A stretch of DNA of 38,904 nucleotides from Pseudomonadota bacterium (GCA_035437965.1 DAOMZC010000002.1:6973-45876); one strand, 5' to 3'; shown: positions 2,298-32,679, counted from the first letter of the stretch. The notes: a model not told the origin generated them from the sequence alone. Numbers and translations are program-made.

Positions 2298-2484
2298 CGG
2301 CGTCCCTCCGCGGCCCAGTGACTGTGACCACCGTCGGCTGAATCGTTGGCTGAGTTGTTGCCTGAACTGGGCGAGCTACTGCGATTGTCTGGGGGGCGGC
2401 GCGTCGTGCTCACGATTCCATCTCCGCGTCTTGGGTGTCAGCGCGAAGCTTTGCAAAGGACGTGCTAGGCCGAGCAGGTGGGGG

Positions 2485-3861: not shown

Positions 3862-3910
3862 GAATATTCCTCAGCGGAGCGCGCTCCGCGGTGAGCCCTC
3901 GGGTGGACTT

Positions 3911-8140: not shown

Positions 8141-8159
8141 GAAGTTGCGTCCTTGGGCC

Positions 8160-8768: not shown

Positions 8769-8789
8769 GACGATTCTCCCCCAGCTTTC

Positions 8790-12713: not shown

Positions 12714-12722
12714 CTTTTTCCC

Positions 12723-15335
12723 TTACCGTCCCGCGTCCTTCTGGGAGAGCCCAGCCGGGTTCATACACACCACTGCGCGACCACTCTGGTCGAGATCGAG
12801 GTAGCGCCCCTGCGCAAGGTCATGCTCGCCGACTACGCCCTGCGAGCGACCGCGATCCAGGGTGCCGCCCACACCGGACTTGCTGTCGAGCCGCAGCGTC
12901 GTGAGCTCGCCATCGCCGCGCAGCTGCAGGCAGCCGTCCTGGCGGCGGGCCAGGGTGAGGCGCTGGAAGTCCTGCACCTTGCGGATGTACTCACTTGCGT
13001 AAACCGGCGTCGCTCCCTGATCGAGCGCCCACTGATACGCCTGCTGCAGCACCTTGAGCGAGCCAATCTTGCTGCCCGAGTAGAAGTGATAATAGATGTT
13101 GATGGGCTTGAGGCGCCGCGGCTTGTCGGTGAGCTGGAAGGTGCTGATGACGTCGCGGAAGCCGTAGTACGGACCGCGCCACAGGTTCGTGTAGACGTTC
13201 TCGTTCTGCACCGGCGCGTACACCTGGTAGTAGGGACCGATCGGGCGGCCCATCGGCGACAGCTCGGTCAGGCTCGGCCGGCGCACCGACATGACGGAGT
13301 TGCCGCCGTTCATGTTGTAGATTCCCAGGCCGCTGGTCAGCGCCACCGCCTCAAGCGGAGCGACCGCCGCGCCGGGCCACAGGAAGACCTTGACCGGCTT
13401 GTCCTTGGGCGCGAGGCGCTGGTTTATGTACGCCACCGAGCCGTCGATCTCGCGCTTCAGCGAAAAGTCGTAGCGGAACATTCCGTTGATGTCGCCGTCT
13501 TCCTGATCGTGTCCGTAGCGCAGCAGATCGAACGGGTGGCTGTAGGAGTGCGACGCGACCTCGACGTAGGGCAGGGCGAAGATGTCGCGGGCGATCGGCT
13601 CCAGCGCCGGGGCGAGCTTGGGCCACTTGCCCTTGGCGCCGATCTCGCCTTCGATGATCGAGACTGTGGTCTTTATCTGGTAGCGCTTGAGGACCTTGTC
13701 GAGGATCACCTGACCGCAGTAGTGGTTGCCCGGCATCTGGGCGCGGCTCGGGAAGCCGTCGCCGTCGATGTGGACCATGAGGATGCGGCGGCCGTTGACG
13801 GTGGTGACGTCGGCCGCTGGCAGCTCCGGCAGCTGCAGCGCCTGTTTGAAGAAGGCAAAAGGGTTGATGATCCAGCGGTAGGAGTGGTCGTAGCCCTCCT
13901 CGGTGAGGTAGGGGTTCATGGCCATGCCGCCCCAGCTCGTGGTGAACACCGCGTCCATGCGCGTCCCGCCGCGATCCTCGACGCTGAGCAGGCGCCGCGC
14001 GCCGGCCCCCGAGACCTGCAGGGGGTAGAACACATTGCGCCGCGCGCTCACCTTGGCCTCGAAGCCGGTCAGCTCGGGGCTGGCCAGCACCAGCTGCGGC
14101 TCGCCCTTGGGGCGGCGGTCCAGGCGCGCGATGCCCAGCCGCTGCTGCAGCTGGGCGTCGGGCAGAAACCCCAGGTGATCGAGCACCGCCACCTTCATTC
14201 CCGAGTCGACCTGCGCCGCCAGCCACGCCCGATACGCCCCCGGATCCGGCATCAGGTCGTCGGTGAACCAGGTGACGATGCCGGCGTAGCGATCGCCGAG
14301 CGAGCCGCCCGGCAGGGTCCCGCGCACATCGACGTAGTCGATGGCGTAGCCCAGGTGCTCGAGCACCACCGCCGCCATCGTGTGGACCGGCGTGTAGGCG
14401 ACATCGGCGTACTGCCCGCGGTCGCGCTGCTCCGAGCTGTCGTATAAAGCAAGGATGCGGCGCGGCACCACCTCCACGGTGCCGACCCCGATCGTCAGCA
14501 GATCGTGGTCACTGATAAAAGGAGTCATGCCGAGTGCCGCGATGCGCCGCGCGGTCGAGCGGGCCAGCTCGCGCTGCGCCTTGGGTACGTAGTCCACCGC
14601 GGTGATCGGCAGGTGATAGCGGTCGCGCGCGGTGCGCAGCTTTTCGAGGAGCCAGGTCCGATCCGGCTCGCTCACCTCGCCGTAGGTCTTCTTGCTCGGG
14701 TCGTAGCTGCGGAACAGCGACTCCACCACCAGGCCGGTGGCCAGCTGGCCGACCGCCGGCAAGAGCTCGAAGCCGCGGTTGAACAGGAGCTTCACGCCGG
14801 GGAAGCGGTCGTGCACCTCCTTGATGATCTGGGCCAGCCCCTGCTCCTGCGCCGCGCGCTGCGCCGGGGTCTGCACCGCCCGCTGGTAGCTGTCGAGGTT
14901 GTCGAGGAAGAAGGCGCGGAAGCCGCGGTCCCACAGCGGCTGGAAGCCCTTGTCGATGAGCTGCCGCCGCCAGCCCGGCTTGGCGGCATCCATGATCACC
15001 GTCTGCCAGCTGGGGTTACTGCCCAGGCGCAGGCTGGCGTCGAGCTGCGCCGCTGCGTCGGGGCTGACCTCGCTGAGGCTGATATAGGCAAAGACGGTGG
15101 TGCCGCGGCGGGTGAGCAGCGCCACCTGGTCCTTTTCGGCCTGATCCGCTTGCACGACAACCTGGTCAAACTGCGAAAGCTCGGCGCCGGGTAGATTTGA
15201 ACCGTAATAAAAAGCGACACTCGGATTGGCCTGTGCGTTAACGCTCAGGTCGGCGGGCCCCGCGGAGCTAACTTGAGGGTGGGCGAATTCGCTCAGTGTA
15301 GATAGCAACAGGAGACCCAAAGTCAGGTGCCGCAC
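12723..15335 (-). CDS. pelA: PelA, periplasmic bifunctional glycoside hydrolase / CE4-like de-N-acetylase (870 aa from the GTG start; the ORF extends to an ATG at 15422)
   Basis: N-terminal TIM-barrel hydrolase-like region (FAYISLSEV, GFRAFFLDNLDSY). CE4-type metal motifs HIDGDG (13755-13772) and HSYSH (13536-13550). GTG at 15335 has AAGGAG 7 nt upstream and starts a signal-peptide-like RHLTLGLLLLSTLSEFAHP. The 29 codons upstream are AT-rich and atypical. Confidence 0.85.
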   Translation of the reverse strand: MRHLTLGLLLLSTLSEFAHPQVSSAGPADLSVNAQANPSVAFYYGSNLPGAELSQFDQVVVQADQAEKDQVALLTRRGTTVFAYISLSEVSPDAAAQLDASLRLGSNPSWQTVIMDAAKPGWRRQLIDKGFQPLWDRGFRAFFLDNLDSYQRAVQTPAQRAAQEQGLAQIIKEVHDRFPGVKLLFNRGFELLPAVGQLATGLVVESLFRSYDPSKKTYGEVSEPDRTWLLEKLRTARDRYHLPITAVDYVPKAQRELARSTARRIAALGMTPFISDHDLLTIGVGTVEVVPRRILALYDSSEQRDRGQYADVAYTPVHTMAAVVLEHLGYAIDYVDVRGTLPGGSLGDRYAGIVTWFTDDLMPDPGAYRAWLAAQVDSGMKVAVLDHLGFLPDAQLQQRLGIARLDRRPKGEPQLVLASPELTGFEAKVSARRNVFYPLQVSGAGARRLLSVEDRGGTRMDAVFTTSWGGMAMNPYLTEEGYDHSYRWIINPFAFFKQALQLPELPAADVTTVNGRRILMVHIDGDGFPSRAQMPGNHYCGQVILDKVLKRYQIKTTVSIIEGEIGAKGKWPKLAPALEPIARDIFALPYVEVASHSYSHPFDLLRYGHDQEDGDINGMFRYDFSLKREIDGSVAYINQRLAPKDKPVKVFLWPGAAVAPLEAVALTSGLGIYNMNGGNSVMSVRRPSLTELSPMGRPIGPYYQVYAPVQNENVYTNLWRGPYYGFRDVISTFQLTDKPRRLKPINIYYHFYSGSKIGSLKVLQQAYQWALDQGATPVYASEYIRKVQDFQRLTLARRQDGCLQLRGDGELTTLRLDSKSGVGGTLDRGRSQGVVGEHDLAQGRYLDLDQSGRAVVCMNPAGLSQKDAGR

Positions 15336-15751
15336 AATCGAACTCCTTGAGGATATAGTTGAATGAAATTTCCCGTCCGCCAGCTTTTTTAGTATAAAAT
15401 GTAGGGAATTTAATACCATCAATGATATCGCCTAGTTAGCCAATTCAGGCGGCTGACTGGGAAAATCTTTGATCCCAATGGCGCATGGGGAATTGCGCGC
15501 CACACTAAAGTCTGTTGCGAGCAAGAGGGATCGGAAGAATTCCCGATCGCCGCTGAAGCCCGTCGGAGTGGTTCTAGCCTGTCGTCCGCTTGGCGGGCGA
15601 TTTGCGATTAAGCAATAAGGCAAGCCAGCAGCGCCCGAAAGAGTTTAATTGGTTATTCGGTTAAGCTGATATTCAAATAGAACGTCTCGGGCAGTCGCAA
15701 AGAGTGAATTTACAAAATCCAGTTCTCGTTGACTCGTAAGGGGAGGGGTAA
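15336..15751. promoter_or_regulatory. Divergent pelA / glmS control region (416 bp, visibly lower GC)
   Basis: Non-coding gap between divergently oriented pelA and glmS. It is AT-richer than the flanks and contains the hairpin gatcgg-aagaattc-ccgatc. No confident -35/-10 or -24/-12 element could be assigned. Confidence 0.5.
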
Positions 15752-17740
15752 ATGTGCGGAATTATTGGGTATCTTGGTCATCAGCAGGCGCTGCCGATTC
15801 TGCTTGAGGGCCTGAAGCGGCTTGAGTATCGCGGCTATGACTCGGCCGGTCTGGCGATGGTAAACGACAATGGCTTACAGGTACGCAAGGCGGCCGGGCG
15901 TATCTCTATTCTTGAAGGCAAGGTAAGCGGCGAGCGCGACACCCTGCTCGCCGGCAGCCTCGGCATCGCCCACACCCGCTGGGCGACCCACGGCGAGCCG
16001 AGCGAGATCAACGCCCACCCGCACGTCGACGACGCCATGCGCGTGGCGGTGGTGCACAACGGCATCGTCGAGAACCACGCCGTGCTGCGCCAGTTCCTGC
16101 AGAGCACCGGCGTCGTGTTCACCAGCCAGACCGATACCGAGGTGCTGGCCCACCTCATCGCCTACCACCTGCGCGGCGACAAGAGCGGCGTGCGCCCGGG
16201 CAACGGCCACAACGGCCACAACGGCCACCCGCCGGTCGGGCACGCCGCGCCGGTCCTGCTCGGCGCCGGCTCCGGTTCGACGCCGGCGCCGAGCGAGGGC
16301 GCCGCGGCGGCGGGCAGCAACCACAAGCTGGGACTCCTGGAGGCGGTGCTGGCCGCCCTGGCCGAGGTCGTGGGCACCTTCGGAATCGCCGTCATCTCGC
16401 GCGATCACCCGGGGTGCATCATCGCGGCGCGCCGCGGCAGCCCGCTGCTCATCGGCATCGGCAAGAACGAGTATGTAGTGGCCTCCGACGCGGCGGCGAT
16501 CGTCGCCCACACCTCCAACGTCGTGTACCTGGAGGACAACGAGGCGGTCGAGGTGACCCTCGGCGGCCTGCGCACCGTCACCCTGGATGCCGTCCCGGTG
16601 ACCAAGACCGTCGAGCACATCGCGGTGGCGCTGGATGAGCTGTCGCTGGCCGACTACCCGCACCGCATGCTCAAGGAGATCTTCGAGCAGCCCGAGTCGC
16701 TCGCCCTGTGCCTGCGCGGGCGCCTGGATCGCATCGGCCACCGCGTGCTGCTCGGGGGGCTGGAGCGCGTCGAGCGCGAGCTGACCCGCACCCGCCGCTT
16801 CATCCTGACCGGCTGCGGCACCGCCTGGCACGCCGCGCTCGTCGGCGAGTACCTGATGGAGGACCTGGCGCGCATCCACACCGAGGTCGAGATCGCCAGC
16901 GAGCTGCGCTACCGCAACCCGCTCATCGACGAGCTGACCACCCTCATCGCGGTGTCGCAGTCCGGCGAGACCGCCGACACCCTGGCGGCGCTGCGCGAGG
17001 TGCGCGACAAGGGCGCCCTGGCCCTCGGCGTGGTGAACGTCGTCGGCTCGTCGATCGCTCGCAACACCGACGCCGGCATCTACCTGCACGTCGGTCCCGA
17101 GATCGGCGTCGCCAGCACCAAGGCGTTCACCGCCCAGGTCGCGGTGCTGGCGCTGCTCACCCTGTGGATGGGCCGCCGCCGCCACCTGTCGCAGGAGCGC
17201 TACGGCGAGCTCCTCGACAAGCTGGCGCAGATCCCGGCGCACATAAAAGAAGTGCTGGGCCAGTCCGAGCACATAAAGGAAGCGGCCAAGAAGCTCTACC
17301 AGCACGAGAACTGGCTGTACCTGGGCCGCGGCTATCACTTCCCGGTCGCGCTGGAGGGCGCGCTCAAGCTAAAGGAAATCAGCTACATCCACGCCGAGGG
17401 TCTGTCGGCGGCCGAGATGAAGCACGGCCACATCGCGCTCATCGTCCCCGGCATGCCGGTGGTCGCGCTGGCTCCGCAGGGCAGCCAGTACGACAAGATG
17501 ATGAGCAACATCGAAGAGGTCAAGGCGCGCGGCGCCCGGGTGATCGCCGTCGGCACCGCCGGCGACACCCACCTGCGCAAGCTGGCCGATGAGATGTTCG
17601 AGATCCCGGCGCTGCCCGAGCCGCTGCAGCCGATGGTCGCGGTCGTGCCGCTGCAGCTATTGGCCTACCATACGGCGGTGCTGCGCGGCTGCAACGTCGA
17701 TAAGCCGCGTAACCTCGCCAAGAGCGTAACCGTGGAGTAA
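15752..17740 (+). CDS. glmS: Glutamine--fructose-6-phosphate aminotransferase GlmS (662 aa, with ~50-aa low-complexity insertion)
   Basis: MCGIIGY Ntn-Cys start, SIS-domain SQSGETADT, canonical C-terminus PRNLAKSVTVE. SD aaggggagggg upstream. Confidence 0.95.
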   Translation: MCGIIGYLGHQQALPILLEGLKRLEYRGYDSAGLAMVNDNGLQVRKAAGRISILEGKVSGERDTLLAGSLGIAHTRWATHGEPSEINAHPHVDDAMRVAVVHNGIVENHAVLRQFLQSTGVVFTSQTDTEVLAHLIAYHLRGDKSGVRPGNGHNGHNGHPPVGHAAPVLLGAGSGSTPAPSEGAAAAGSNHKLGLLEAVLAALAEVVGTFGIAVISRDHPGCIIAARRGSPLLIGIGKNEYVVASDAAAIVAHTSNVVYLEDNEAVEVTLGGLRTVTLDAVPVTKTVEHIAVALDELSLADYPHRMLKEIFEQPESLALCLRGRLDRIGHRVLLGGLERVERELTRTRRFILTGCGTAWHAALVGEYLMEDLARIHTEVEIASELRYRNPLIDELTTLIAVSQSGETADTLAALREVRDKGALALGVVNVVGSSIARNTDAGIYLHVGPEIGVASTKAFTAQVAVLALLTLWMGRRRHLSQERYGELLDKLAQIPAHIKEVLGQSEHIKEAAKKLYQHENWLYLGRGYHFPVALEGALKLKEISYIHAEGLSAAEMKHGHIALIVPGMPVVALAPQGSQYDKMMSNIEEVKARGARVIAVGTAGDTHLRKLADEMFEIPALPEPLQPMVAVVPLQLLAYHTAVLRGCNVDKPRNLAKSVTVE

Positions 17741-17782
17741 TCCGAGTAGTCGTAGGAAACTTGGGAAAGCGGAGGAGCCAAG

Positions 17783-18781
17783 ATGGCGCATTATCTAGTC
17801 ACCGGCGGCTGCGGGTTTATCGGCAGCCACCTTGCCGACCTGCTCCTTTCGGGCGGTCACACGGTGCGAGTGCTGGACGATCTGTCGACCGGCAAGCGGG
17901 AAAACCTGTCGCCCCAGGCCGAGCTTGTCATCGGCGATGTCGCCGACCCCGAGAAGGTGGCGCAGGCGATGGCCGGCGTCGACGGGTGCTTTCACCTGGC
18001 GGCGGTGGCCTCGGTCGATCGCTGTAACCGCGACTGGCTGGGCACCCACCGGACCAACCTCACCGGCACCATCACGATCTTCGACTGCGCGCGGGCGACC
18101 GCGGCGCGGCCGGCGATCCCGGTGGTGTACGCCTCGTCGGCGGCGATCTACGGTGATCAGCCGCAGGTGCCGCAGGACGAGCGGATGGGGCCGCAGCCGC
18201 TGTCTTCCTACGGCGCCGACAAGCTCGGCTGCGAGCTGCACGCCCGCGTCGCCACCCACCTGCACGGGGTGCCGGCGGTGGGCATGCGGTTCTTCAACGT
18301 GTACGGCAAGCGTCAGGACCCCAAGTCGCCCTACTCGGGAGTGATCTCGATCTTCTGCGATCGGCTGCGCCAGGATCTGCCGATCACTGTGTTCGGCGAC
18401 GGCCAGCAGGTGCGCGACTTCGTCTATGTCGGCGATGTGGTGCGGGCGCTGGAGCTGGCGATGGCGGCGCCCGCGAAGCTGCCGGCGGGCAGCGTGTTCA
18501 ACGTCTGCACCGGGCGCTCGACCAGCATCCTGCTGTTGGCCGATACAATCGCCACGCTGTGGGGGCGAAAGCCGAGCATCGTCCAGGCGCCGCCGCGCGC
18601 CGGCGACATCCGCGTCTCGATCGGCAGCCCCGAGCGCGCCGCGGCGGCCCTGGGGTTCCAGGCCAGCACCACCCTGCCCGTGGGGCTCGGCCGGATGCTC
18701 CTGGGCGATCTGCCCGAGCGGCCGCCGCTCGCCGAGCCCGCGCCCGCCGCCTCCCACGCCGCGCCCGCCGCGGCTCCGTAA
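17783..18781 (+). CDS. Extended-SDR NAD-dependent sugar-nucleotide 4-epimerase (PelX/WbpP-like candidate)
   Basis: TGGCGFIGSHL Rossmann motif, catalytic S(x)n YGADK (YxxxK), about 330 aa. GGAGGAG SD. Substrate specificity cannot be read from the sequence. Confidence 0.8.
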   Translation: MAHYLVTGGCGFIGSHLADLLLSGGHTVRVLDDLSTGKRENLSPQAELVIGDVADPEKVAQAMAGVDGCFHLAAVASVDRCNRDWLGTHRTNLTGTITIFDCARATAARPAIPVVYASSAAIYGDQPQVPQDERMGPQPLSSYGADKLGCELHARVATHLHGVPAVGMRFFNVYGKRQDPKSPYSGVISIFCDRLRQDLPITVFGDGQQVRDFVYVGDVVRALELAMAAPAKLPAGSVFNVCTGRSTSILLLADTIATLWGRKPSIVQAPPRAGDIRVSIGSPERAAAALGFQASTTLPVGLGRMLLGDLPERPPLAEPAPAASHAAPAAAP

Positions 18782-19276
18782 AGGGCGCCGCCGACGACGA
18801 TCGGCTGGCTGACCGCCCCGCCGATCGCCTGGCCGGCGCCCACCGATCGCTGAAGCAGGCGAGAATCTGCCGCGCTTCGCAGTCCCTCGATCGCAAGAGC
18901 GGCCCGGCAACTTCTCACCATCAGCGACGGAAAAATCAGCGAATTCCGCTCCCCGGGCACATGTCGCTAGGGGCACGGCGGTGTGTCCCGAGGGTCACAT
19001 GCGTATGCCCCTGAGGACATATGTATGCGCCCCGCCCGGCCAAAAAAAGTTACAAAAAAATAACAGAATATTTCCACGGCGCTACAAATCTCCGACGCTG
19101 ATGTGGGATGGTTCGGGCGCGATCGCGGACGATACGCTGAGAGACATCCAGGACGGGTTGTCCGGACTGAAAAAAAGCAGACCAAAACAGAACAGCAGAG
19201 TCACCGGGAGAAGTGAATGACGCGACGAGTGAACGACCGCCCCACGACAGCACGCAACTCGCATGAAGGAGTATCA

Positions 19277-20683
19277 ATGCCGGCGCTACGTACTGTTAAG
19301 ACCACCGATGTTGAGATGGTATCAAGTGGCGGCCGCTCCGCTCTGCGTGGTGCACTTTCCCTGACTCTGTTTGCTGGGACTCTGTTTGCCGGGACTCTGG
19401 CCGCTTGCGGCAACCCGGAGATCGACTCCGAGACCGATGCCCTGGAAGCAGTGGCGATCGAGCCGAGCGCGGCGGCAGCGCAGAGCCGCCTCTTCCCGAC
19501 CCGGCTCACCCTGCAGAGCGGCAAGGTCAGCGCGCAGCCGCTGACCGTGCTGGCGACGCAGGACCAGTCGGGGACCGTGGACACCTGGGTCAACTACCTG
19601 GAGTTTTCGCCGGGTACGGCGGTGCAGGCCACCTTCACCTTCACCCTGCCGTCCTCGGTCACGCCGGCGCAGCTCGCCAGCCTCACCCTGCTCACCAACT
19701 ACAAGGGCCAGGCCAAGGCGACGCAGACCTGGAGCTTCCAGCTGTATGACGTTGCCAATGCGCGCTGGGTCACCGTGGGCGACAACCAGGCGGCCAAGAG
19801 CTGGGTGTGGAGCCCGCTGGCGTTCGTGCCGACCGGCACCGCGGCGAACTTCGTCAGCGCCAGCCGCGAGCTCAGCCTGCGCCTTGTGACCAAGAGCGCG
19901 GCGGACAACTGCGACCTCGACTACCTCGCCCTCAGCTACACCACCGGCTCCGCCCAAAGCCCGACTCCGACTCCGACCGGCCTGTGGGTTCCAAGGCCCG
20001 GTACGAGCTGGCAGATTCAGTTTGCCGGCACGCTGGATACCTCGGTGAATGTGAAGGCGTTCGATCTGGATCTGTTTGGTACCTCCAAGGCCACGATCGA
20101 TCAGCTGCACGCCAAGGGGACCAAGGTGATCTGCTACTTCAGCGGCGGCAGCTCCGAGACCTACCGCCCCGACTTCGGCAGCTTCCCACCAAGCGTCCTC
20201 GGCACGACCCTGGGCGGCTACCCCGACGAGCGCTGGCTGGACGTCCGCCAGCTCGCCATCCTCGGCCCGATCATGACCGCGCGCATGGATCTGGCAAAGG
20301 AGAAGGGCTGCGACGCGGTGGACGCCGACAACATGGACGGCTACACCAATAACTCCGGATTCTCGATCTCGTACGCCCAGCAGCTGGCCTACAACAAGCT
20401 GATCGCCGACGAGGCGCACAAGCGCGGGATGTCGATCGGGCTCAAAAACGACCTGCTGCAGATTAAAGACCTCGCCGACACCTACGACTTCGCGATCAAC
20501 GAGCAGTGCCTGGAGTACTCCGAGTGCTCCTATATGAAGCCCTTCATCGATCGGAATAAAGCCGTGTTCGCAATCTCCTACTCGGGCTCGCAGTCGAGCG
20601 TCTGCTCGCAGTCAAACCCGCTCGACTTCGACATGCTGATAAAGAACCTCTCGCTCGACAGCTACCGGGTCACCTGCCGCTAG
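19277..20683 (+). CDS. Secreted lipoprotein: N-terminal beta-sandwich-like domain plus GH114 endo-alpha-1,4-polygalactosaminidase domain
   Basis: ATG at 19277 has GAAGGAG 5 nt upstream. Lipobox LAAC. PTPTPT linker. C-terminal KVICYFSGGSSETYRPDF and GCDAVDADNMDGYTNNSGFSISYAQQLAYNKLIADEAHKRGMSIGLKND match the GH114 (Glyco_hydro_114) signature as I recall it. Confidence 0.8.
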   Translation: MPALRTVKTTDVEMVSSGGRSALRGALSLTLFAGTLFAGTLAACGNPEIDSETDALEAVAIEPSAAAAQSRLFPTRLTLQSGKVSAQPLTVLATQDQSGTVDTWVNYLEFSPGTAVQATFTFTLPSSVTPAQLASLTLLTNYKGQAKATQTWSFQLYDVANARWVTVGDNQAAKSWVWSPLAFVPTGTAANFVSASRELSLRLVTKSAADNCDLDYLALSYTTGSAQSPTPTPTGLWVPRPGTSWQIQFAGTLDTSVNVKAFDLDLFGTSKATIDQLHAKGTKVICYFSGGSSETYRPDFGSFPPSVLGTTLGGYPDERWLDVRQLAILGPIMTARMDLAKEKGCDAVDADNMDGYTNNSGFSISYAQQLAYNKLIADEAHKRGMSIGLKNDLLQIKDLADTYDFAINEQCLEYSECSYMKPFIDRNKAVFAISYSGSQSSVCSQSNPLDFDMLIKNLSLDSYRVTCR

Positions 20684-20864: not shown

Positions 20865-21479
20865 ATGAACGAGTTCATCCCCCGTAGCGACCCGCAGCTC
20901 TGCCTCTGGCTCGACAACTACAGCAAGCGCATCGCGGTGTACGGAGCTCGCTTTGGCCTCACTGCCGATGAGATCACCGCCCAGCAAAGGTGGTGCGACG
21001 AGCTTACCGAGGCGATAAAGACCGACGATCAGAAACATAAGGAGTGGCGGGCCGCCGTCAAGGTGACGCGCGAGGTGAAAAAATCGTCGCTGGCCGCGGT
21101 GCGGGCGATGATCGAGCGCATCAAGCACCTGCCCGGCTGGACACCGAGCATCGGGCAGGCGATGGGGGTGGTGAAGAAGGCCCCGCTGCCGACGCCGATG
21201 GACGCGATCAAGCCGAAGCTGCAGGTGGTTACCGAGGCGGGGCAGGTGCGGCTGAAGTTCACTCGGCGTCCGCTCGATGGGATAAACGTGTATATGCGGC
21301 GCAAGGGCGAGGCGCAGTGGCAGCTCTTGGCGCGCGCCACCCGGTCGCCGTTTATCGATCCGACGGCGCTCCTTTTCCCGAATACCTCGGAGATCCGCGA
21401 GTATCGGGCGATGGGAGTGCGCAAGGATAAGGAAGTCGGCCAGCCGAGCGACATCGTGGTCGCTGTCGTCGGTGCCTAG
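20865..21479 (+). CDS. Hypothetical protein, 204 aa (helical N-terminal half, beta-rich FN3-like C-terminal half)
   Basis: ATG ORF with coding-like composition and no strong competing ORF of coding-like composition. No recognisable catalytic motif. Confidence 0.6.
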   Translation: MNEFIPRSDPQLCLWLDNYSKRIAVYGARFGLTADEITAQQRWCDELTEAIKTDDQKHKEWRAAVKVTREVKKSSLAAVRAMIERIKHLPGWTPSIGQAMGVVKKAPLPTPMDAIKPKLQVVTEAGQVRLKFTRRPLDGINVYMRRKGEAQWQLLARATRSPFIDPTALLFPNTSEIREYRAMGVRKDKEVGQPSDIVVAVVGA

Positions 21480-21532: not shown

Positions 21533-21548
21533 TGGCATGTCCCCTGCA
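21533..21548 (+). promoter_or_regulatory. Sigma-54 type -24/-12 promoter (TGGCAT-N5-CTGCA)
   Basis: GG and GC are at the canonical spacing of TGGCAC-N5-TTGC. It sits about 90 nt upstream of the ATG at 21638 in a non-coding gap. Confidence 0.55.
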
Positions 21549-21637
21549 TTGCTCGCAAGCCAGATTCCTGAGAGCTCTTAATCACGCTTCAGGTTGGTGT
21601 TCTGGCTCTGTGACTGGCTTTGCGAAAGGGGGGGACA

Positions 21638-22660
21638 ATGTCCCACGAAGAGAATACTACTTGTCTACTCTCGACCGAGGATGCGGATCGCTATCTCGAG
21701 CGGGTCAGTGAGTTTATCCGCTCTGCTCGTCTGAATGCGCAGTTCCCGCCGGCGCAGCGGCTGCTCGGCTACCTGACGGCGATGCACTCGCGCACCCATG
21801 ACGGGCTGTATCCCAAGCTGAGCGTCGACGCCGAGTCCGGGCTGCCCTCGCCCAAGGAGTGCCTGCGGGTCAAGCTCGACGCGGCGCTCGCTGCGACGAT
21901 CAGCTCGTCGACGCCCAGCCACCTCGGGTCGCGGCCGCTCCTGCACAACGTGCAGCGCGCCCACCAGCTGTATCGCGCCCGGCTGCGCTCGCTGGGGCTC
22001 TTGCCGCTCGATGCGATGCGCGTCGATCTGCAGCGCATCGATCATGATCGCGGGACGATCTCGGCGCGGGTGATCCTCGACAAGGTCGATGAGAACAACC
22101 TGTACATGCGCTGCACGGTCGAGATGTCGCAGCGGGTGCCCGCCCTGGAGTCGCACCAGCTCTTGTCGCTGCGCGGCCAGGACGTGGCGGCCAGCCCGGA
22201 GCTCGTCGCCCGCATGTCCGAGCTGGCGTCGCTCGATGCCGAGTACACGCTGATCGAGCTGTCTTCAGTGCCGGGCGTCACCGTGCACCGGGTCTCGCGC
22301 GCCACCATCGGGCCGTGCTTCCTGGCCGAGCTGCCGCGGACGCCGCCGCTCGGCGCGCTCCTTTCGGGTCGGCGGGGGGCGATTGCCACCTTCGGCCTCG
22401 ATGTGGCGGCGCGCGACCTGCTGGCCAGCGGCAACAACGATCCGCTGCCGAGCCCTCGCCGCGACAACATGCCGGTCGAGCTGCGCGCCGAGTACGAGCG
22501 CGCCCGCATACGCCTGGACTACCGGGTGTTCCGCGATCGCAAGTTCGTCACCGATCTGGCGACCCAGCCGGCGCTGGAGGGGCTGTGTCAGGCGGCCGGA
22601 ACGCGCAACATCATCTACGCCGCTGCGCCGATCGGAGCCCGGATCGAGGCGTGGGCATGA
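21638..22660 (+). CDS. Orphan 340-aa protein, translationally coupled partner of the giant GHKL protein
   Basis: ATG at 21638 preceded by aaggggggga. Stop TGA (22658-22660) overlaps the ATG (22657-22659) of the next gene. No motif I recognise. Confidence 0.7.
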   Translation: MSHEENTTCLLSTEDADRYLERVSEFIRSARLNAQFPPAQRLLGYLTAMHSRTHDGLYPKLSVDAESGLPSPKECLRVKLDAALAATISSSTPSHLGSRPLLHNVQRAHQLYRARLRSLGLLPLDAMRVDLQRIDHDRGTISARVILDKVDENNLYMRCTVEMSQRVPALESHQLLSLRGQDVAASPELVARMSELASLDAEYTLIELSSVPGVTVHRVSRATIGPCFLAELPRTPPLGALLSGRRGAIATFGLDVAARDLLASGNNDPLPSPRRDNMPVELRAEYERARIRLDYRVFRDRKFVTDLATQPALEGLCQAAGTRNIIYAAAPIGARIEAWA

Positions 22661-25600
22661 GCGAGCCGGAGATTAATCAGGACCTCGCCGTAGAAGATGT
22701 GCTCGAGCAGCTGGTGAGCCAGTTCGCCGACCCGCTGTGCTTCCTGCGCGAGCTGGTGCAGAACTCGATCGACGCCGGCAGCACCAAGGTCGAGGTGACC
22801 TGCACGTTCGAAGACGACAGCCCCTTGCTCGCGGTGGCCGGCGGCCTGGTCGCCGCCGACGCCAGCCACGGCAAGGCCGCCGAGCTCGGCACCGCGATCA
22901 TCCGCGTCGTCGACTTCGGCGAGGGCATGGACGGCCACATCATCGACAGCCGGCTTACCCGCCTGTTCAGCTCGGACAAGGAGGGCGATCGCACCAAGCT
23001 CGGCAAGTTCGGCACCGGGTTCATCTCGGTGTTCGCGCTGCAGCCGGACGCCGTGTGCGTCGACACCGGGCGCTACGGCGAGAGCTGGCGCCTGGTGTTC
23101 CAGCCCGATCGCACCTTCACCCGCATCCGCTTGAGCGAGCCGGTGGACGGCACCACGGTGCGCCTGTTCAAGACCATGCAGCGCGGCCAGTTCGAGACGC
23201 TGGCGCGGCGGGTGCGGCGGACGCTCGTACGCGACTGTCCGCACGTCGAAGTGGCGCTGCGCTATCAGGGCGAGCTGCTCAGCCGGCCCCTTTCCCTGGA
23301 GGTGCTGGAGGCGCCGGTCAAGATCACCGCGAAGGCGCACGGGGCGACGATCGTGGTCGGCTTCACGCCGCCCGGCGCGCCGGCGCGGGCCACCCTTTAC
23401 GGGTGCGGTCTGACGCTGCTCGCGCGGCCCTCCGAGCTTGCCGGCATCTCCTACAAGATCGACTCGCCGGCGCTGGAGCACACGCACGGCCGCGACGGCG
23501 TGCTGCGCGGCGAGCACTACCAGGCGCTCATGACCACGGTGAAGGCGCTGGCCAGCGGCCAGCTGGTGGAGGAGCTGTTCACGAGGCTGGAGAAGGGGCT
23601 GCAGGAGCCGAGCCCGCCGGCGGCGGAGCTCGTCGAGTGGCAGCGCTGCGTCGCCGACCTCCTGCGGCGCGGCGCGGCGCTGCCCGAGTCGTGCGCGCAG
23701 CGGCTGGTGGCGTGCTCGCCGCACGGGGAGCTCTACCCGCTGGCCGCCTGTCAGGACGCGGCGCGCGCCGAGCGGCTCTACAGCGCCGCCGAGCCCTCGC
23801 CGCTGAGCACCGCCGCGGTGGCCGCCGGCGAGCTGGTGCTGTCCGACTGGCAGACCGAGCTCCTCGGGGCGCTCGTGCGCGGGGAGCCGCCGCGGCTGGA
23901 GCGGACGCTGGTGCTGCCGCTGCCGCTCATCCCGAAGGACCTGGACGAGGTGCAGTGGGCGGGGGCCGAGGCGCTGCGCACCGCCGTCCTCATGCTGGTG
24001 CGCGCCGCCGAGGGGCCCGTCATCACCGTGGAGCTCGGCAGCCTGGCCTACCCCGGCTCGGGCGCCGGCGAGCTGCCGTGCATCGTGCAGGCGCAGCCGT
24101 TCGCCGCCAGCCGGCTCGCCGCGGCGCACCCCAAGGACCAGCGCTGGCCGGAGCCCGGCGACGACAAGGCCCTGCGCAGCACCTGGGTGCTCAACGCCGA
24201 CCACCCCACCTTCAAGACCCTGCTGCCGCTCGCCGAGAGCGAGCCCGAGCTGTGCGCCTACTTCCTGACCAAGCTGTGCCTCCTTGGCAGTCCGCAGCTC
24301 GGCGAGCTCAATGTCCGCCTGCTGACGCTGGCGCTGGAGCAGCGCGCCCAGCGCCAGGAGGCGCCGCTCATCGCCCGCCAGCGCCTGCTCACCTCGCTCA
24401 CCCGGATCGAGGGCGAGATCGTCTCGTCGGGCTCGTTCACCATCGATCCCGAGCGGGTGCGCGACAAGCTCCGCCGCTCGCGCTTCGAGAACCCGCTGCG
24501 CTACGTCCTGGAGCTCGTCCAGGCGGCGAGCCTCAAGGGCGCGACCCACCTGGAGTTCCGCTTCGGCGCCGACGACATGCAGCTGCGCTTCAACGGCGAG
24601 CCGTTCACGGCTGGCGATTTCGAGCAGCTCTACTCCGCGCTGCTCCACCGCGGCGAGGGCCGCGAGGGGCAGGCGCGCAACGTCCTGGCGCTCGGCCTGT
24701 GCGCCGCGCTGCAGCTCGATCCGGCGCTCATCCACGTCGAGAGCGGCGACTCCTTCGTCGAGCTGCGCCCCGGCCAGCCCGACCGCCTGGGGACGCTGCC
24801 GGCGCCCGCGCCGCTCACCCAGATTCGCGTCCGCCACCGCCTGGGCCTGGACCTGCTCAAGCGCTACGTCGATCACCTGGGCGGCCACCTGACCGAGGAG
24901 CTCCTCTTGCAGGAGCGCTGCCACCACGCCTGCATGGCGATCGAGCTCGATGGCAGGATCATCTCGCAGGGCCACACCTTCCCCAACGTGGCGTTCGCGC
25001 GCACCTTCAGCAGCGACGGCATCTCCGGCACGGTCGCCATCGCCCCGCTGCCCGCCGCGCCGCCGACCGAGAGCAGCGTGCAGCTGGCGCCGGCGGCGGT
25101 GCTCAGCTCGTCCTTCCTGCGGCTCATCAAGAACGATGTGTGGGTCGACACCCAGCTGCCGATCGAGCTATTGCCGGGTTTCCTGGCGCTCGCCGAGAGC
25201 TCGGCGTATCGGCTGGATTTCTCTCGCGAGCACGTGGTCCAGGACTCGCACTACGCGGCGGCGCTGCGCGCGGTGGCGGCGGCCCAGGTCGAGCTCCTGG
25301 CGGCGCTGTGCGAGCGGTCGACGCAGGGGCCGTTCATGGACGTCCTGCACCTGCGGGCGCTGCTGCGCGGACTCCTGTCGCGGCTCGGCGGGCTGGCGCC
25401 GCTCCTGCGCTGGGCGCAGCTGCCGGTCGAGCAGTTCCCGCCCGAGGTCGTGACCGAAGGCAGCTCGCTGTGGCCGCTGGAGGTCGAAAAGGGCCTGGCG
25501 CTGCTCGAGGTCCCGATCTTCTACACGACGATCGGCGACATGGTCTCGCTGCGCGTCCTGCTCGACGATCTGGCGCAGCACCGCACCATCGCCTACAGCT

Positions 25601-28155
25601 CGTACCGCAGCCGCGAGCCCGACCCCAAGCGGCCGGTGGTGCTCTACCTTGCCGAGCCCGGCGATCACGATGTCCTGCACGAGCTGTTCGGCAGCGCGCT
25701 CACCTGCCGCGACGCCGCCATCCAGCTGGCCTGGAAGCGCGAGCACAACCGGACGGTCTGGCTGAGCCGCACCTACCAGCCGCGGCTGACCAGCCAGCAG
25801 CTGCTCGCCCGCGCGCCGCTCAGCGGCCCGGAGTTCACCGGCGAGGTCGGCATCGAGTCGGGCCCGCAGGTGCTGGAGTCGCGCGAGCGGCTGCTCAACC
25901 GGCCGTGCACGCTGCGGCTGCTCCTGATCAAGGACGGCTGCCTGCTGGTCGAGAAGCGGGTGCCGTTCCCCGCCCCCGACCTGAGTGTGGTGGTGATGGG
26001 GAACTTCACCCCGAGCTACCTGTTCGACGACGTGATCAGCGATGGCGCGCTCACCGAGGTGGTGGACGCCCTGTTCGACGCCCTGCCGGTGCTGATCGAG
26101 CAGCTTGCCCTGGTCCCCACCGGGCAGGCGGAGATAGCGGCGCAGAGCGGCGCGCTGGCGTGGCGGGCGTGCGTGCTGCGCCGGCTGCTCATGCTGGTGC
26201 TGTCGGCAGAGGCGCGGCGCAGCGCCCGCGCCGCGATGGGGGTCGCGACGCCGAGCGCGGGCGGCGCGGGGGAGCTCATCCCTCACCCGCTGTGGATGCA
26301 GCTCGAAGAGGTGCAGCTGTTCGAGGCGCTCGACGGCAAGCTGCTAAAGCCGCGCGAGCTCGCGGAGCTTGCCCGCGGCGCCGAGCCGCTGCCCGTGCTC
26401 TGCCCGTCGCCGACCGTGCTGCCCAGGCGCCTGGCCACCTGGACGGCGCTCGGCCGCTCCGACAGCGACACAAAGAAGGCGTGGTATAAGGCCCACGCGC
26501 AGTCACCGACCCGGCTGCCGGTTGAGGAGCCGCCGCCGCTGATCCTGTACCTGGCCCCCGCCGAGCGCGCGCTGCTCAGCGAGCTCGGTCAGCAGCTGCC
26601 GGGGCTGCGCCTGGTCGATGCCGAGCCGTGGCTGCGCAGCGTCGAGACGGTCGCGGCGCAGAGCACCCGCCACGCCGAGCTGCTGCTGCTGCCCCGGGAC
26701 TGCGAGGTGGCGGTGCCGCTGGTCGGCATCGAGGGGGTGCTCGGGCTCATCGAGGAGACCGAGTTCCTCGCCATGGCCGACGAGGCCGAGGCCGAGCCGC
26801 GGATCACCGTGGCGCTGTTCTGCGAGCGCCGCAGCCTCGGTAGCGGCGAGCTCTACCTGCCGGGCGGGCAGTTCCTGTCGGCGGTCGCCGATCACCCGCA
26901 GCTGCGGCTCGACCCAGGCGGCAAGAGCCTGGACGAGAACGAGGCGCTGGTGGCGGTGCGCACCGGCATCGCCGCGGCGCTGCCCGAGCTGCTGGCGGCG
27001 CTGGCCGAGCACGCGCTGCCCTGGCCGACCCTGTACGGGCGGGTTCTGCTCACCGCGGCCACCGCGCTGTTCCCCCGGCCGGCCTTCCGCCGCGCCTACG
27101 ACACCCTGCGCTCGTACTGCAGCCGGGGCGACTACCCCGGGCGGCGCCCCGAGGACGCCGAGCGCGAGTACGGGGCGCTCTTGCGGCTGACCGTCGCCAC
27201 CTCGCTCAAGCGCGTCGAAGAGGTGCTGCAGCGCCACCTGGACAGCGACGAGCCGCTGTCCATCTTCCAGGTGACCCGCGAGCTCCTGCCGATGCTCGCC
27301 GAGTCGTGGGAGGCGGTGCCGCCGGATCGCGAGGCGGCCGAGCTGACCCAGGCCACCCAGCTGCCGCCCGGCGCCATGGCGTGGATCGACACCCTCTACC
27401 CGGACAGCGATGGCCTGCCGTTCGGGGAGCGGGTGCTCCTCATCCTGCCGGCGCTGGCCGAGGCGCCGCTGCTGGTCACCCCCGCCGGTGACAGCCTGAC
27501 CCTGGATGCGGTGATCACCGACTACCAGGAGCACGGCCACGTGCTGTACTCAAGCGGCAAGGCGGCGCCGCCGGCCGCGACGCGACCGCTCATCAGTGAT
27601 CCCGACGGGCTGCTGCTGCCGCTCCTGCACTGCCTGTTCGGCGCCGGCCAGGTGCACGAGGTCAGCGCGCTGGCGCTGCCGCCGCCGCCACCGGTGCCGT
27701 CGCCGGCGCTGCCGAGCTGGCCGCTGCCCCGGCCGGTCAAGTCCGAAGGGAGCGCCGGCGCGCTCGGCGATCGCCTGCTCGCCGCGGTGCTGCAGGAGAT
27801 CCGGGCGGTGCGCGGCCGCAACGAGCGCCTGCTCAACAACGTCAACCTGGCCTGGCTGCAGCTCCGCGAGAGCGAGCAGCCGCGCGCCGTCATCTGCGAC
27901 CGCCAGCAGTTCCTCATCAACCGGCGCCACCCGACGGTCCAGCGGGCGCTGCGCAACTCGACCGTCGATCCGCAGAGCGTGCGCTTCTTGGCCTCGGCGG
28001 TGTACACCGCGCTCAGCACCCGGCTGGACGGGGTCTATCCGGCCGACGCGGCGCACTTCCACCGCCGCCTGGCGGCGCGCGCGCTGGCCGAGACCGCCGA
28101 GGCGCGGGCACCCGGGCGCCCGGCGCCTTCCAAAGTGAGCATGAATCCTGCTTAG
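22657..28155 (+). CDS. Giant (1,832 aa) protein with N-terminal Hsp90/MutL-type GHKL (Bergerat-fold) ATPase domain and a second degenerate module
   Basis: Start chosen at the ATGA overlap. The ORF track extension to 22315 lies inside the upstream gene in another frame. Motif I ELVQNSIDAG (22750-22779), motif II DFGEGM (22912-22929), motif III GKFGTGF (23002-23022). Uninterrupted 5.5-kb frame. Confidence 0.8.
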   Translation: MSEPEINQDLAVEDVLEQLVSQFADPLCFLRELVQNSIDAGSTKVEVTCTFEDDSPLLAVAGGLVAADASHGKAAELGTAIIRVVDFGEGMDGHIIDSRLTRLFSSDKEGDRTKLGKFGTGFISVFALQPDAVCVDTGRYGESWRLVFQPDRTFTRIRLSEPVDGTTVRLFKTMQRGQFETLARRVRRTLVRDCPHVEVALRYQGELLSRPLSLEVLEAPVKITAKAHGATIVVGFTPPGAPARATLYGCGLTLLARPSELAGISYKIDSPALEHTHGRDGVLRGEHYQALMTTVKALASGQLVEELFTRLEKGLQEPSPPAAELVEWQRCVADLLRRGAALPESCAQRLVACSPHGELYPLAACQDAARAERLYSAAEPSPLSTAAVAAGELVLSDWQTELLGALVRGEPPRLERTLVLPLPLIPKDLDEVQWAGAEALRTAVLMLVRAAEGPVITVELGSLAYPGSGAGELPCIVQAQPFAASRLAAAHPKDQRWPEPGDDKALRSTWVLNADHPTFKTLLPLAESEPELCAYFLTKLCLLGSPQLGELNVRLLTLALEQRAQRQEAPLIARQRLLTSLTRIEGEIVSSGSFTIDPERVRDKLRRSRFENPLRYVLELVQAASLKGATHLEFRFGADDMQLRFNGEPFTAGDFEQLYSALLHRGEGREGQARNVLALGLCAALQLDPALIHVESGDSFVELRPGQPDRLGTLPAPAPLTQIRVRHRLGLDLLKRYVDHLGGHLTEELLLQERCHHACMAIELDGRIISQGHTFPNVAFARTFSSDGISGTVAIAPLPAAPPTESSVQLAPAAVLSSSFLRLIKNDVWVDTQLPIELLPGFLALAESSAYRLDFSREHVVQDSHYAAALRAVAAAQVELLAALCERSTQGPFMDVLHLRALLRGLLSRLGGLAPLLRWAQLPVEQFPPEVVTEGSSLWPLEVEKGLALLEVPIFYTTIGDMVSLRVLLDDLAQHRTIAYSSYRSREPDPKRPVVLYLAEPGDHDVLHELFGSALTCRDAAIQLAWKREHNRTVWLSRTYQPRLTSQQLLARAPLSGPEFTGEVGIESGPQVLESRERLLNRPCTLRLLLIKDGCLLVEKRVPFPAPDLSVVVMGNFTPSYLFDDVISDGALTEVVDALFDALPVLIEQLALVPTGQAEIAAQSGALAWRACVLRRLLMLVLSAEARRSARAAMGVATPSAGGAGELIPHPLWMQLEEVQLFEALDGKLLKPRELAELARGAEPLPVLCPSPTVLPRRLATWTALGRSDSDTKKAWYKAHAQSPTRLPVEEPPPLILYLAPAERALLSELGQQLPGLRLVDAEPWLRSVETVAAQSTRHAELLLLPRDCEVAVPLVGIEGVLGLIEETEFLAMADEAEAEPRITVALFCERRSLGSGELYLPGGQFLSAVADHPQLRLDPGGKSLDENEALVAVRTGIAAALPELLAALAEHALPWPTLYGRVLLTAATALFPRPAFRRAYDTLRSYCSRGDYPGRRPEDAEREYGALLRLTVATSLKRVEEVLQRHLDSDEPLSIFQVTRELLPMLAESWEAVPPDREAAELTQATQLPPGAMAWIDTLYPDSDGLPFGERVLLILPALAEAPLLVTPAGDSLTLDAVITDYQEHGHVLYSSGKAAPPAATRPLISDPDGLLLPLLHCLFGAGQVHEVSALALPPPPPVPSPALPSWPLPRPVKSEGSAGALGDRLLAAVLQEIRAVRGRNERLLNNVNLAWLQLRESEQPRAVICDRQQFLINRRHPTVQRALRNSTVDPQSVRFLASAVYTALSTRLDGVYPADAAHFHRRLAARALAETAEARAPGRPAPSKVSMNPA

Positions 28156-28181: not shown

Positions 28182-28652
28182 ATGACCACCATGAACCAGG
28201 ACAAGCAGCACAACAAAATCGACAACAGCAACGGCAGTAAGAATGGGCATGGGAGCGATATGATGAGCGACAACCAGAAGCGCAAGCCTGCTGTCGAGTC
28301 ACGGACGGAGAACCAGGTCGACGCGGCGGCGGACAGCGCCTCCGACGCGCTCAAGAACGCCGCCGACCTGGCCAAGGACGCGCTGGGCCAGGCCGAGAAG
28401 GAGGCCCAGGTGATCGTCCAGGAGTTCAAAGAGCGCCTGGAGCCCCTGGATCAGTGGGTGCGCACGACGACCCAGGAGCACCCCTACCTGGTGGTCGGCT
28501 CGGCGATCGGCGTCAGCTTCCTCGCCGGGTTCCTGATGCGCCGCCGCGCCGCGGTGAGCGCCGGGGTCGCCGTCGGTTTCTTGACCGGCTGCGTCATCAG
28601 CGGCCGCTCGTTCGCGCTGGCCAAGCAGGCCGAGGCGGCCAGCCGTAAGTGA
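28182..28652 (+). CDS. ElaB/YqjD-like DUF883 tail-anchored stress protein, 156 aa
   Basis: AAGGAG (28169-28174) 7 nt upstream of the ATG. Hydrophilic low-complexity N-terminus, helical middle, C-terminal anchor HPYLVVGSAIGVSFLAGFLMRRR typical of DUF883. Confidence 0.75.
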   Translation: MTTMNQDKQHNKIDNSNGSKNGHGSDMMSDNQKRKPAVESRTENQVDAAADSASDALKNAADLAKDALGQAEKEAQVIVQEFKERLEPLDQWVRTTTQEHPYLVVGSAIGVSFLAGFLMRRRAAVSAGVAVGFLTGCVISGRSFALAKQAEAASRK

Positions 28653-28796: not shown

Positions 28797-28958
28797 ATGT
28801 TCTACTGGGCCGCAGTTCTATTAGTAATCGCCATTGTGGCTGCTGCTTTTGGATTCGGCGGCCTGGCGGCCAGCGCTGCGGGGCTGGCCAAGATCGTTTT
28901 CTTTATCGCGATCGTGTTCGCACTGATCACGTTCGTGGTGGGGGCCCGCCGGAAGTGA
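28797..28958 (+). CDS. UPF0391/DUF1328 (YtjA-like) small membrane protein, 53 aa
   Basis: MFYWAAVLLVIAIVAAAFGFGGLAASAAGLAKIVFFIAIVFALITFVVGARRK closely matches the YtjA family pattern. GGGAG SD 7 nt upstream. An alternative ATG lies at 28791. Confidence 0.8.
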   Translation: MFYWAAVLLVIAIVAAAFGFGGLAASAAGLAKIVFFIAIVFALITFVVGARRK

Positions 28959-31007: not shown

Positions 31008-31061
31008 GGCGGACTCCTTAGTTGATTTAGGAATGCCTGCAAACAAGTGACGTTGCCTACA

Positions 31062-31076
31062 GCAAGGGGTATGCCA
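31062..31076 (-). promoter_or_regulatory. Sigma-54 type promoter (minus strand TGGCAT-N5-TTGC) for the OmpA-like / Cys-rich lipoprotein genes
   Basis: The plus strand reads gcaa-ggggt-atgcca, so the reverse complement is TGGCATACCCCTTGCT. The predicted TSS is about 40 nt upstream of the ATG at 31007. Confidence 0.6.
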
Positions 31077-31239: not shown

Positions 31240-31254
31240 TGGCATCTGCCTTGC
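31240..31254 (+). promoter_or_regulatory. Sigma-54 type promoter (TGGCAT-N5-TTGC) for the LEA-like gene
   Basis: tgTGGCATctgccTTGCTcg. The -12 GC lies about 65 nt upstream of the ATG at 31320. Confidence 0.6.
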
Positions 31255-31319
31255 TCGCGCTGTGATTTGGCGCGGCGCTCGCCGGAGCGGCTGCTACAAT
31301 TCCCTTAAGGAGGATTCCC

Positions 31320-32610: not shown

Positions 32611-32625
32611 TGGCACGCGCTTTGC
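32611..32625 (+). promoter_or_regulatory. Sigma-54 promoter, perfect consensus (TGGCACG-N4-TTGCT)
   Basis: ctacTGGCACGcgctTTGCTcaaa. The -12 GC lies about 55 nt upstream of the ATG at 32680. Confidence 0.7.
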
Positions 32626-32679
32626 TCAAACCTGCAGCAGCAGGGTCACATCGACCGAACCCAGACAGACAGGTGGAAC

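Follow-up and report, generated by a model that had tools for sequence, protein, structure and literature searches.

The Hsp90 homodimer uses its two ATP sites unequally, a behaviour that has been studied with engineered dimers in which one of the sites is dead. For bacterial HtpG we know of no co-chaperones. TmtA, the protein of the Tiamat defence system, is listed as a single-gene system. Sacsin is a chaperone that carries Hsp90-like modules in tandem, the 'sacsin repeat regions' (PMC3710099), and TRAP1 is established to use its two ATP sites asymmetrically (PMC5550277). Here we analyzed a locus with features of these proteins in a stretch of 38,904 nucleotides (nt) from a Pseudomonadota bacterium (GCA_035437965.1, DAOMZC010000002.1:6973-45876), below called the window. 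The locus comprises gene A, encoding a small partner protein, and gene B, encoding a giant ATPase. A preliminary description had presented it as a two-gene module of an orphan protein and an ATPase with some 1,600 residues to which no motif could be assigned.

Comparison with related loci led to another picture. B is a head-to-tail fusion of two Hsp90-like proteins, here named B1 and B2, so that neither the count of two genes nor the featureless remainder of the preliminary description stands. The locus of the window is the minimal form (A plus fused B1-B2) of a larger cassette, X-A-Y-B1-B2, which is known so far only from Myxococcota. We hold with moderate confidence that the core of this cassette is a pair of Hsp90-type proteins acting as an asymmetric clamp together with a dedicated partner, in a chaperone-like role.

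The N-terminal domain of B had been described as a Bergerat-fold (GHKL) ATPase domain of Hsp90 or sacsin type, and the curated thresholds bear this out. B scored 30.4 bits against Pfam HATPase_c_3 (cut-off 25) and, in two stretches, 50.7 bits against the NCBIfam sacsin-type ATP-binding domain NF047352 (cut-off 50). A further match to Pfam SACS (PF25794; 28.6 bits, E 1.5e-6) stayed under the gathering cut-off of 32.8. Within B1 the motifs I (ExxxNxxD), II (DxGxG), III (GxxGxG) and IV (T) are all present, and the residues E32, N36, D39, D86, G88, G90, G116, G119, G121, T166 and R279 were invariant in 18 sequences. Equally invariant in these sequences was a loop T276-x-x-R279-D280 at the position of the Hsp90 catalytic Arg. 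When the B1 profile was compared with the sequences of the PDB, TRAP1 (E 6.6e-10) and HtpG (1.5e-9) ranked first, followed by Grp94 and Hsp90-beta, and sacsin was found at 2.8e-7. A second, collinear stretch of B1 aligned weakly (E 0.09) with TRAP1 residues 404-616, pairing the Hsp90 C-domain motif 'leiNprHalikkL' with 'lvvNaDHPtvktLl' of B1. Judged by its sequence, B1 has an intact ATP site within a divergent Hsp90-like protein and is predicted to be ATPase-competent. Neither a HisKA nor any other kinase domain was found in B by Pfam at E <= 1, and the GHKL domain is N-terminal, so that B is not a histidine kinase.

The alignment of B1 with B2 by hhalign had a probability of 98.65% (E 4.6e-16; 329 columns, B1 aa 21-382 against B2-local 39-421; aa, amino acids). 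B2 is therefore paralogous to B1 over its first ~400 residues. The ATP site of B2 is degenerate: it reads ELVQAASLKGA in place of motif I, has no DxGxG and lacks the glycine lid. Aligned with B1, the Mg-binding Asn has become Ala, and the motif I Asp, the adenine-binding Asp and the lid glycines are lost. Since this Ala was invariant in 32 B2 sequences, the nucleotide site is a conserved pseudo-site and not the outcome of decay.

An AlphaFold2 model of B aa 596-1795, built from 32 sequences, reached a mean predicted local distance difference test (pLDDT) of 81 and a predicted template modelling score (pTM) of 0.47; the single domains appear well modelled, their mutual arrangement is uncertain. 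Foldseek returned 214 PDB matches at E <= 0.001 for this model, and all 50 of the 50 listed were members of the Hsp90 family. Among these listed matches, the model superposes on TRAP1, Hsp90, Grp94 and HtpG, with TRAP1 at E 3.2e-12, template modelling (TM) scores to the target of up to 0.57 and 490-560 aligned columns that cover the N-terminal and middle domains. A few alignments extend to 735-741 columns, in which the aligned residues were not inspectable. The assignment of a middle domain in B1 is based on its homology to the modelled region of B2 and on the TxxRD loop. B holds two Hsp90-like modules of N-terminal plus middle domain, and the former statement that it has no Hsp90 middle or C-terminal layout was wrong for the middle domain.

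Behind this part, B2 continues with a variable region, mainly helical in the AlphaFold2 model, in which the relatives differ by large indels, and with a conserved C-terminal domain of ~120 aa (H1758, P1759 and D1771 among the conserved residues). The library scans and the PDB sequences gave no family for either region. The C-termini of B1 and B2 resemble each other weakly (hhalign probability 27%, 27 columns) around a shared N..HP motif. A HEPN motif (Rx4-6H) was considered for the end of B2 and rejected, since an 'HP' motif, but no Arg, is conserved there.

When one genome per species was scanned with the B alignment, 43 loci were obtained. Almost all of them bear the label of a Myxococcota lineage, and one is called only 'bacterium'; they comprise Polyangia, Nannocystaceae (Enhygromyxa, Plesiocystis, Paraliomyxa), Bradymonadia and unclassified 'Deltaproteobacteria' and Myxococcales metagenome-assembled genomes (MAGs). 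In most relatives B is present as two adjacent genes whose ends typically overlap by 4-8 nt. The stand-alone B1 proteins (~510-730 aa) correspond to aa 17-566 of the window's B and the stand-alone B2 proteins (769 to ~1,670 aa) to aa 570-1811. B1 and B2 were adjacent in 59/59 loci long enough to show both; adjacency and translational coupling are constant features of the pair. The fused form was found in ~10 protein clusters of 1,825-1,886 aa; it is real and occurs in the clade of the window, most relatives having separate B1 and B2 genes. The nearest relative, the Polyangia MAG JBGANQ010000009, has fully syntenic flanks and proteins 84% (B) and 94% (A) identical to those of the window. In a relative of 58% G+C (locus L004, 11032-16604) B is split exactly at the B1/B2 junction into genes of 590 and 1,275 aa, and A is still coupled to it by a 4-nt overlap. 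Proteins that are fused in one lineage usually interact. Because B1 and B2 are fused in one lineage ('Rosetta-stone') and adjacent, we infer that they associate and dimerise.

The G+C content of the window is 68.6%, and long spurious open reading frames (ORFs) are common in it for this reason. A and B are nevertheless real genes and not high-GC artefacts, since both show the coding signature in the G+C content of third codon positions (0.87 for A, 0.93 for B) and have full-length homologues at 39-97% identity. The start of A is additionally backed by a conserved G-rich ribosome-binding site (RBS) plus ATG in three related loci. Long antisense ORFs (345-786 aa) lie within B at 22615-24975, 25168-26286 and 26503-27540, all on the minus strand; they are typical high-GC artefacts, and comparable ones occur in several other loci. 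The promoter-like element, both ORFs, the ATGA overlap and the motifs ELVQNSIDAG, DFGEGM and GKFGTGF were all located where the preliminary description had placed them (Table 1). The translational coupling of A and B proposed there is also kept in relatives: the genes overlap by 4 nt in L001, L006 and L004, and by 8 nt in L073.

Table 1. Features of the A-B locus, numbered from the first nucleotide of the window
Feature	Position	Strand	Remarks
Sigma-54-type -24/-12 element TGGCATGTCCCCTGCA (TGGCAT-N5-CTGCA)	21533-21548	+	105 nt 5' of the A start codon; GG-N10-GC spacing
Gene A, 340 aa	21638 (ATG) to 22660 (TGA)	+	Partner protein; matches no Pfam, NCBIfam, PADLOC or PHROGs family
ATGA stop/start overlap joining A to B	22657-22660	+	Read from the sequence
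Gene B, 1,832 aa	22657-28155	+	Fused B1-B2
B1 module (B aa 1-569)	22657-24363	+	All four GHKL motifs and middle-domain Arg R279
B2, first part (B aa ~570-1150), pseudo-Hsp90 N-terminal plus middle domain	24364-26106	+	Degenerate ATP site; 3' limit approximate
B2, variable, mainly helical region (B aa ~1151-1699)	26107-27753	+	Poor alignment among relatives, large indels
B2, conserved C-terminal domain with motif INRRHPTVQRAL...DPQSVRFLASAVYTAL, then disordered tail and stop	27754-28155	+	Conserved residues
DUF883 (ElaB-like) gene	28182-28652	+	PF19029 match; starts 26 nt past the B stop; own AGGAG RBS

The partner protein A is not an orphan. A word-indexed search found 12 clusters. When 1.84 billion representatives were searched exhaustively with the A profile, 248 scored E <= 1e-3 and 92 scored E <= 1e-30, so that the family comprises at least 248 representative clusters. 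Full-length members have ~300-370 aa; shorter matches look like fragments. The members looked up were named 'hypothetical protein' or had no name, and a Pfam scan of 55 diverse members assigned no family. The AlphaFold2 model of A is confident (pLDDT 86.4, pTM 0.85); it has helices in its N-terminal part, together with long curved antiparallel sheets. Foldseek found nothing significant for it in the PDB (best E 0.04, TM <= 0.27) or in BFVD. Weak similarities of the sheets to NTF2-, GID4- and MlaC-like proteins were dismissed as noise, and an Aha1-like co-chaperone fold was dropped since no Aha1 or Hsc82-Aha1 entry was among the matches.

A metagenome scan seeded with A alone, using a narrower alignment, yielded 24 loci, to which hidden Markov models were then applied. 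In these loci a tightly overlapping gene order X-A-Y-B1-B2 recurred. X is a coiled-coil protein of ~360 aa without a family. Y is a divergent AAA+ ATPase of ~520-600 aa (PF00004, 22 bits) with the Walker A motif GxGxxGCGKT. The full order was found in at least 13 loci and X-A-B1-B2 in at least six; other forms are A-B1-B2 and the type of the window, A with fused B, in which no X or Y was found. That A and B are conserved neighbours was confirmed, as B1/B2 lies next to A in 17/19 A-seeded loci long enough to judge (exceptions L060 and L062). B1-B2 or fused B alone was present in ~30 loci, chiefly of Nannocystaceae. Since the variants of the cassette differ and many loci have B1-B2 without A, the core is formed by B1-B2, to which A is bound as an accessory module, either alone or together with X and Y. 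In L056 the X homologue lies in an ORF of ~717 aa (6798-8951), about twice the usual size and possibly an overlong ORF call, and B1-B2 is convergent to X-A.

The lack of annotation noted for the two genes holds for the whole cassette. Scans of A, X, Y and B2 with PADLOC, NCBIfam and PHROGs found nothing, and the profiles of A, X, Y, B2 and the B2 C-terminal domain had no significant match among the PDB sequences. A published description was found neither by literature searches nor by a term search in PMC7159879. The cassette is undescribed: A, X, Y and stand-alone B2 are absent from all four profile libraries (Pfam included). An ESCRT-III/Vps4 relationship of X and Y was suggested by a weak SNF7 match (E 0.12) of the A profile. 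It was rejected because this match is in A and not in X and overlaps modelled beta strands, and because the X and Y profiles match nothing.

From these features we propose that B1 and B2 would act jointly as a hard-wired asymmetric clamp of Hsp90 type. ATP binding and hydrolysis at the single live site of B1 would power its closing and opening, and the dead B2 module with its variable extension would provide the surface for substrate binding. A could be a stoichiometric adaptor, a co-chaperone or a dedicated client, and Y, where present, may deliver or extract the substrate. The job of such a machine would be the remodelling or assembly of specific proteins and not defence.

The genomic behaviour of the locus is ordinary. 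A is 94% and 73% identical to its orthologues in L001 and L006, B 84-86% and 62-76%, and the syntenic neighbours 70-94% and 52-81%; the divergence of A and B thus keeps pace with that of the genes around them. The cassette is chromosomal and syntenic. B1-B2 also stands in conserved synteny in several Nannocystaceae loci. On plasmids, phages and IMG/VR contigs no homologues were found beyond generic GHKL heads. Neither a PADLOC system match nor a recognisable effector domain was found in the cassette proteins.

Several observations weigh against a chaperone-like clamp. Many genomes carry B1-B2 without A, so that A is dispensable to the core. B is Hsp90-like in fold and motifs and is not an HtpG orthologue: B1 remains far under the family cut-offs, with 19.2 bits against HtpG PRK05218 (cut-off 371) and 19.5 bits against HSP90 PRK14083 (cut-off 455). 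The similarity to the Hsp90-type C-terminal dimerisation domain is weak in both modules, as given above. When Hsp90 dimerises in the canonical, parallel way, a large distance separates the C-terminus of each protomer from the N-terminus of its partner. With a linker of ~25-30 aa, the fused B may not suit this geometry and may be forced into another. No client is known, and the clamp model is built on sequence and predicted structure.

The make-up of the cassette is moreover patchy. X and Y come and go, and B is sometimes convergent. At least two cassettes occur per genome in some cases (bin.80: L006 and L010; MAG-82: L009 and L011; GMC8: L035 and L038), and B1-B2 is tandemly duplicated in L029 and L035. 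This modular patchiness and the hypervariable B2 extension also resemble conflict systems, and the defence protein TmtA provides the best PADLOC matches, which are weak and do not go beyond the GHKL head. Tandem B1-B2 or extra B2 copies cover L029 1137-13658, L035 8154-20904, L028 10858-19108 and L036 9965-17004, and several MAGs hold two separate cassettes of differing type.

The cassette could thus be a nucleoside triphosphate-dependent conflict system directed against phages or other invaders, with B1 as the switch, the B2 extension as the sensor and X, A and Y as the regulatory or effector part; we regard this as possible, though rather unlikely. It would account for the changing gene content and orientation, the paralogous and tandemly duplicated cassettes, and the extreme variability of the second half of B2 in length and sequence. 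The GHKL head of TmtA provides the top matches of B1 in the defence library, and one locus with B only (L002) adjoins phage-tail-like genes. Furthermore, the cassette was seen only in Myxococcota, reportedly a group rich in such systems (PMC7159879). On the other hand, the library scans revealed no effector domain of any kind (nuclease, protease, TIR, pore or other) in any component, and no PADLOC system; the TmtA matches cover at most ~100 of 1,063-1,782 profile positions. Neither the window nor the examined genome loci have defence or mobile genes at the flanks of the cassette. The kept synteny, a divergence equal to that of the neighbouring genes and the absence from plasmids, phages and IMG/VR also argue against it. 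In L002 itself (1-4091 and 15480-16964), phage tail tube, tail-assembly-chaperone and E217_gp31-like genes are near a fused B without A (51% identical), and a convergent KaiC/RecA-like ATPase gene directly follows this B.

Between the two, we favour the chaperone-like role, which we give an even chance, over the rather unlikely defence role. The preliminary description had likewise preferred proteostasis to defence, with a function in stress or desiccation. Its argument from the gene context is weak because the neighbours are syntenic only in the closest relatives; its preference for proteostasis remains the better guess.

A third explanation, that B is a nucleic-acid clamp of the MutL/MORC/SMCHD1 kind whose GHKL heads dimerise on ATP and so entrap DNA or RNA, with the cassette serving chromosome organisation or repair, appears very unlikely. 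Such GHKL ATPases are large proteins, many of which pair with a coiled-coil protein, and the GHKL head of B has weak NCBIfam matches to MutL and topo VI-B. The MutL model TIGR00585, however, reached 15 bits at a cut-off of 180, and Hsp90 paralogues head the matches of the B1 profile. Of the structures matched by B2, the 50 listed included no MutL, GyrB or MORC structure and all belonged to the Hsp90 family, aligned over the N-terminal and middle domains, and Pfam found no DNA-binding or nuclease domain. With family models and listed structural matches both against it, membership of B in a MutL/MORC/GyrB-type clamp family was rejected.

Upstream of A, the element listed in Table 1 had been taken for a sigma-54 promoter. 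GG-N10-GC spacing is the hallmark of such promoters, whose canonical form is close to TGGCAC-N5-TTGCW. The element is identical in L001 and L049 and changed by one base in L006, and none of 21 more distant loci has it in front of the cassette. It is plausible as a putative promoter and clade-specific regulatory feature; as a feature of the whole family it was rejected, being confined to the clade of the window. The pattern TGGCAY-N5-YTGCW occurs four times in the window (0.2 expected), at least three of the four copies being just 5' of genes, which suggests a local cluster of sigma-54-dependent genes. The three further elements are located 3' of the module at 31061-31076 (minus strand), 31240-31255 and 32611-32626 (both plus strand), at least two of them directly 5' of genes (an OmpA-like gene and an 89-aa ORF). 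Pfam detected no sigma-54 activator domain in the genes of the window that were scanned, which were all but a few small ORFs. In the MAG JAFGRB010000189 (L073), genes for a HisKA sensor kinase and an NtrC-type sigma-54 activator (17369-20241) come after a distant A-B1-B2 cassette and share its orientation, and an S8 peptidase and a Tricorn_N/PD40 protein are encoded divergently upstream of this cassette.

No terminator-like site was found after B, and the DUF883 gene is probably co-transcribed with B, in the clade of the window only; it follows B in L001 and L006 and not elsewhere. A small hydrophobic ORF (~28797-28957, plus strand), placed where the syntenic L001 has DUF1328 (UPF0391), and an alpha/beta hydrolase gene come next, and both may share the A-B transcript with the DUF883 gene. 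In the lineage of the window the module would be transcribed from the sigma-54 promoter, probably together with the ElaB-like stress gene, which would imply activator-dependent stress or developmental control.

Directly upstream of A a 204-aa protein without a family is encoded at 20865-21479 (plus strand). It is unrelated to X, is kept in position in L001 (87%) and L006 (77%) and is preceded by a sigma-70-like site. Further upstream are a GH114 gene, an epimerase gene, GlmS and a complete pel operon (2485-15422, minus strand) with PelG, PelF, a TPR PelE-like protein, PelD (GAF plus PelD_GGDEF), PelB (TPR plus PelB beta-barrel) and a PelA-like protein (GH114 plus deacetylase); at the PelC position there is a 202-aa gene without a Pfam match. 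Downstream of the module, genes for DUF1328, a hydrolase, OmpA, RlmL, an aminotransferase, DUF1223 and TamB were found. The neighbours of the module are metabolic, conserved-unknown or envelope genes, and distant cassettes have unrelated neighbours that are metabolic or of no known family. A search for conserved B1-B2 neighbours across all loci was given up, since its top cluster consisted of the antisense ORFs inside B1, an artefact, and the real neighbours are clade-specific. That the module is, in this lineage, an assembly factor dedicated to the envelope or exopolysaccharide machinery is very unlikely: it does lie between the pel operon with its GlmS, epimerase and GH114 genes and the DUF883, DUF1328, OmpA and TamB genes, and B is probably co-transcribed with DUF883, but this neighbourhood is common only to the closest relatives L001 and L006 while distant cassettes differ, and a reading of the sequence by eye showed neither a signal peptide nor a membrane segment in A and B.

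Returning to the asymmetric clamp with a chaperone-like role, A, X and Y would, if this is true, be the first partners found to be dedicated to a bacterial Hsp90-type chaperone. The picture of HtpG as a chaperone without known co-chaperones would be altered by an operon in which Hsp90-like proteins are tied to A with its novel fold, the AAA+ protein Y and the coiled-coil protein X, and a natural, ancient pair of a live and a dead Hsp90-like module in one chain would offer a ready-made test of the purpose of the second site. Should the cassette serve defence instead, it would be a defence system of a new kind, with a chaperone fold as its basis. In both cases four unannotated families (A, X, Y and stand-alone B2) are placed in one functional unit.

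Among known systems, the Hsp90 family (HtpG, TRAP1) is one of the closest to B. B shares with this family the Bergerat N-terminal domain of B1, motifs I-IV and the middle-domain Arg loop, and both B1 and B2 have a C-terminal 'N..HP' motif with a weak resemblance to the Hsp90 C-domain motif. In contrast to Hsp90, two non-identical modules, one live and one dead, take the place of a homodimer, B2 has ~650 extra residues, the modules of the window are fused in one chain, and the operon includes the dedicated partners A, X and Y. Sacsin is similar in being a giant protein with Hsp90-like modules in series. B has two modules rather than three, however, the second with a dead ATP site; no UbL, DnaJ or HEPN domain was found in it by the Pfam scan, and it is bacterial and operon-encoded with partner genes. 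TmtA is likewise a large protein (profiles of 1,063-1,782 positions) with an N-terminal GHKL head, and was matched at E 4.8e-4 to 0.03 by the B of the window and down to 5.9e-8 by relatives. These matches lie in the head, where they span only ~30-100 residues, and for the window ~24-110 residues of profiles with 1,063-1,486 positions; the remainder is unaligned and no full-length match was found. B furthermore belongs to a multi-gene cassette, unlike TmtA with its single gene.

The engineered one-dead-site dimers of TRAP1 and Hsp90 follow the same concept as the proposed arrangement, combining one hydrolysing and one non-hydrolysing protomer in each clamp (PMC5550277). In the cassette this asymmetry would be genetically fixed and ancient, as the replacement of Asn by Ala in 32 B2 sequences suggests. 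Set beside these systems, the cassette may well be an undescribed multi-ATPase machine in which a fixed asymmetric heterodimer of Hsp90 type is joined by A with its novel fold, the AAA+ protein Y and the coiled-coil protein X, or alternatively a new Hsp90-based class of immune system, a proposal that we consider about as apt to hold as to fail.

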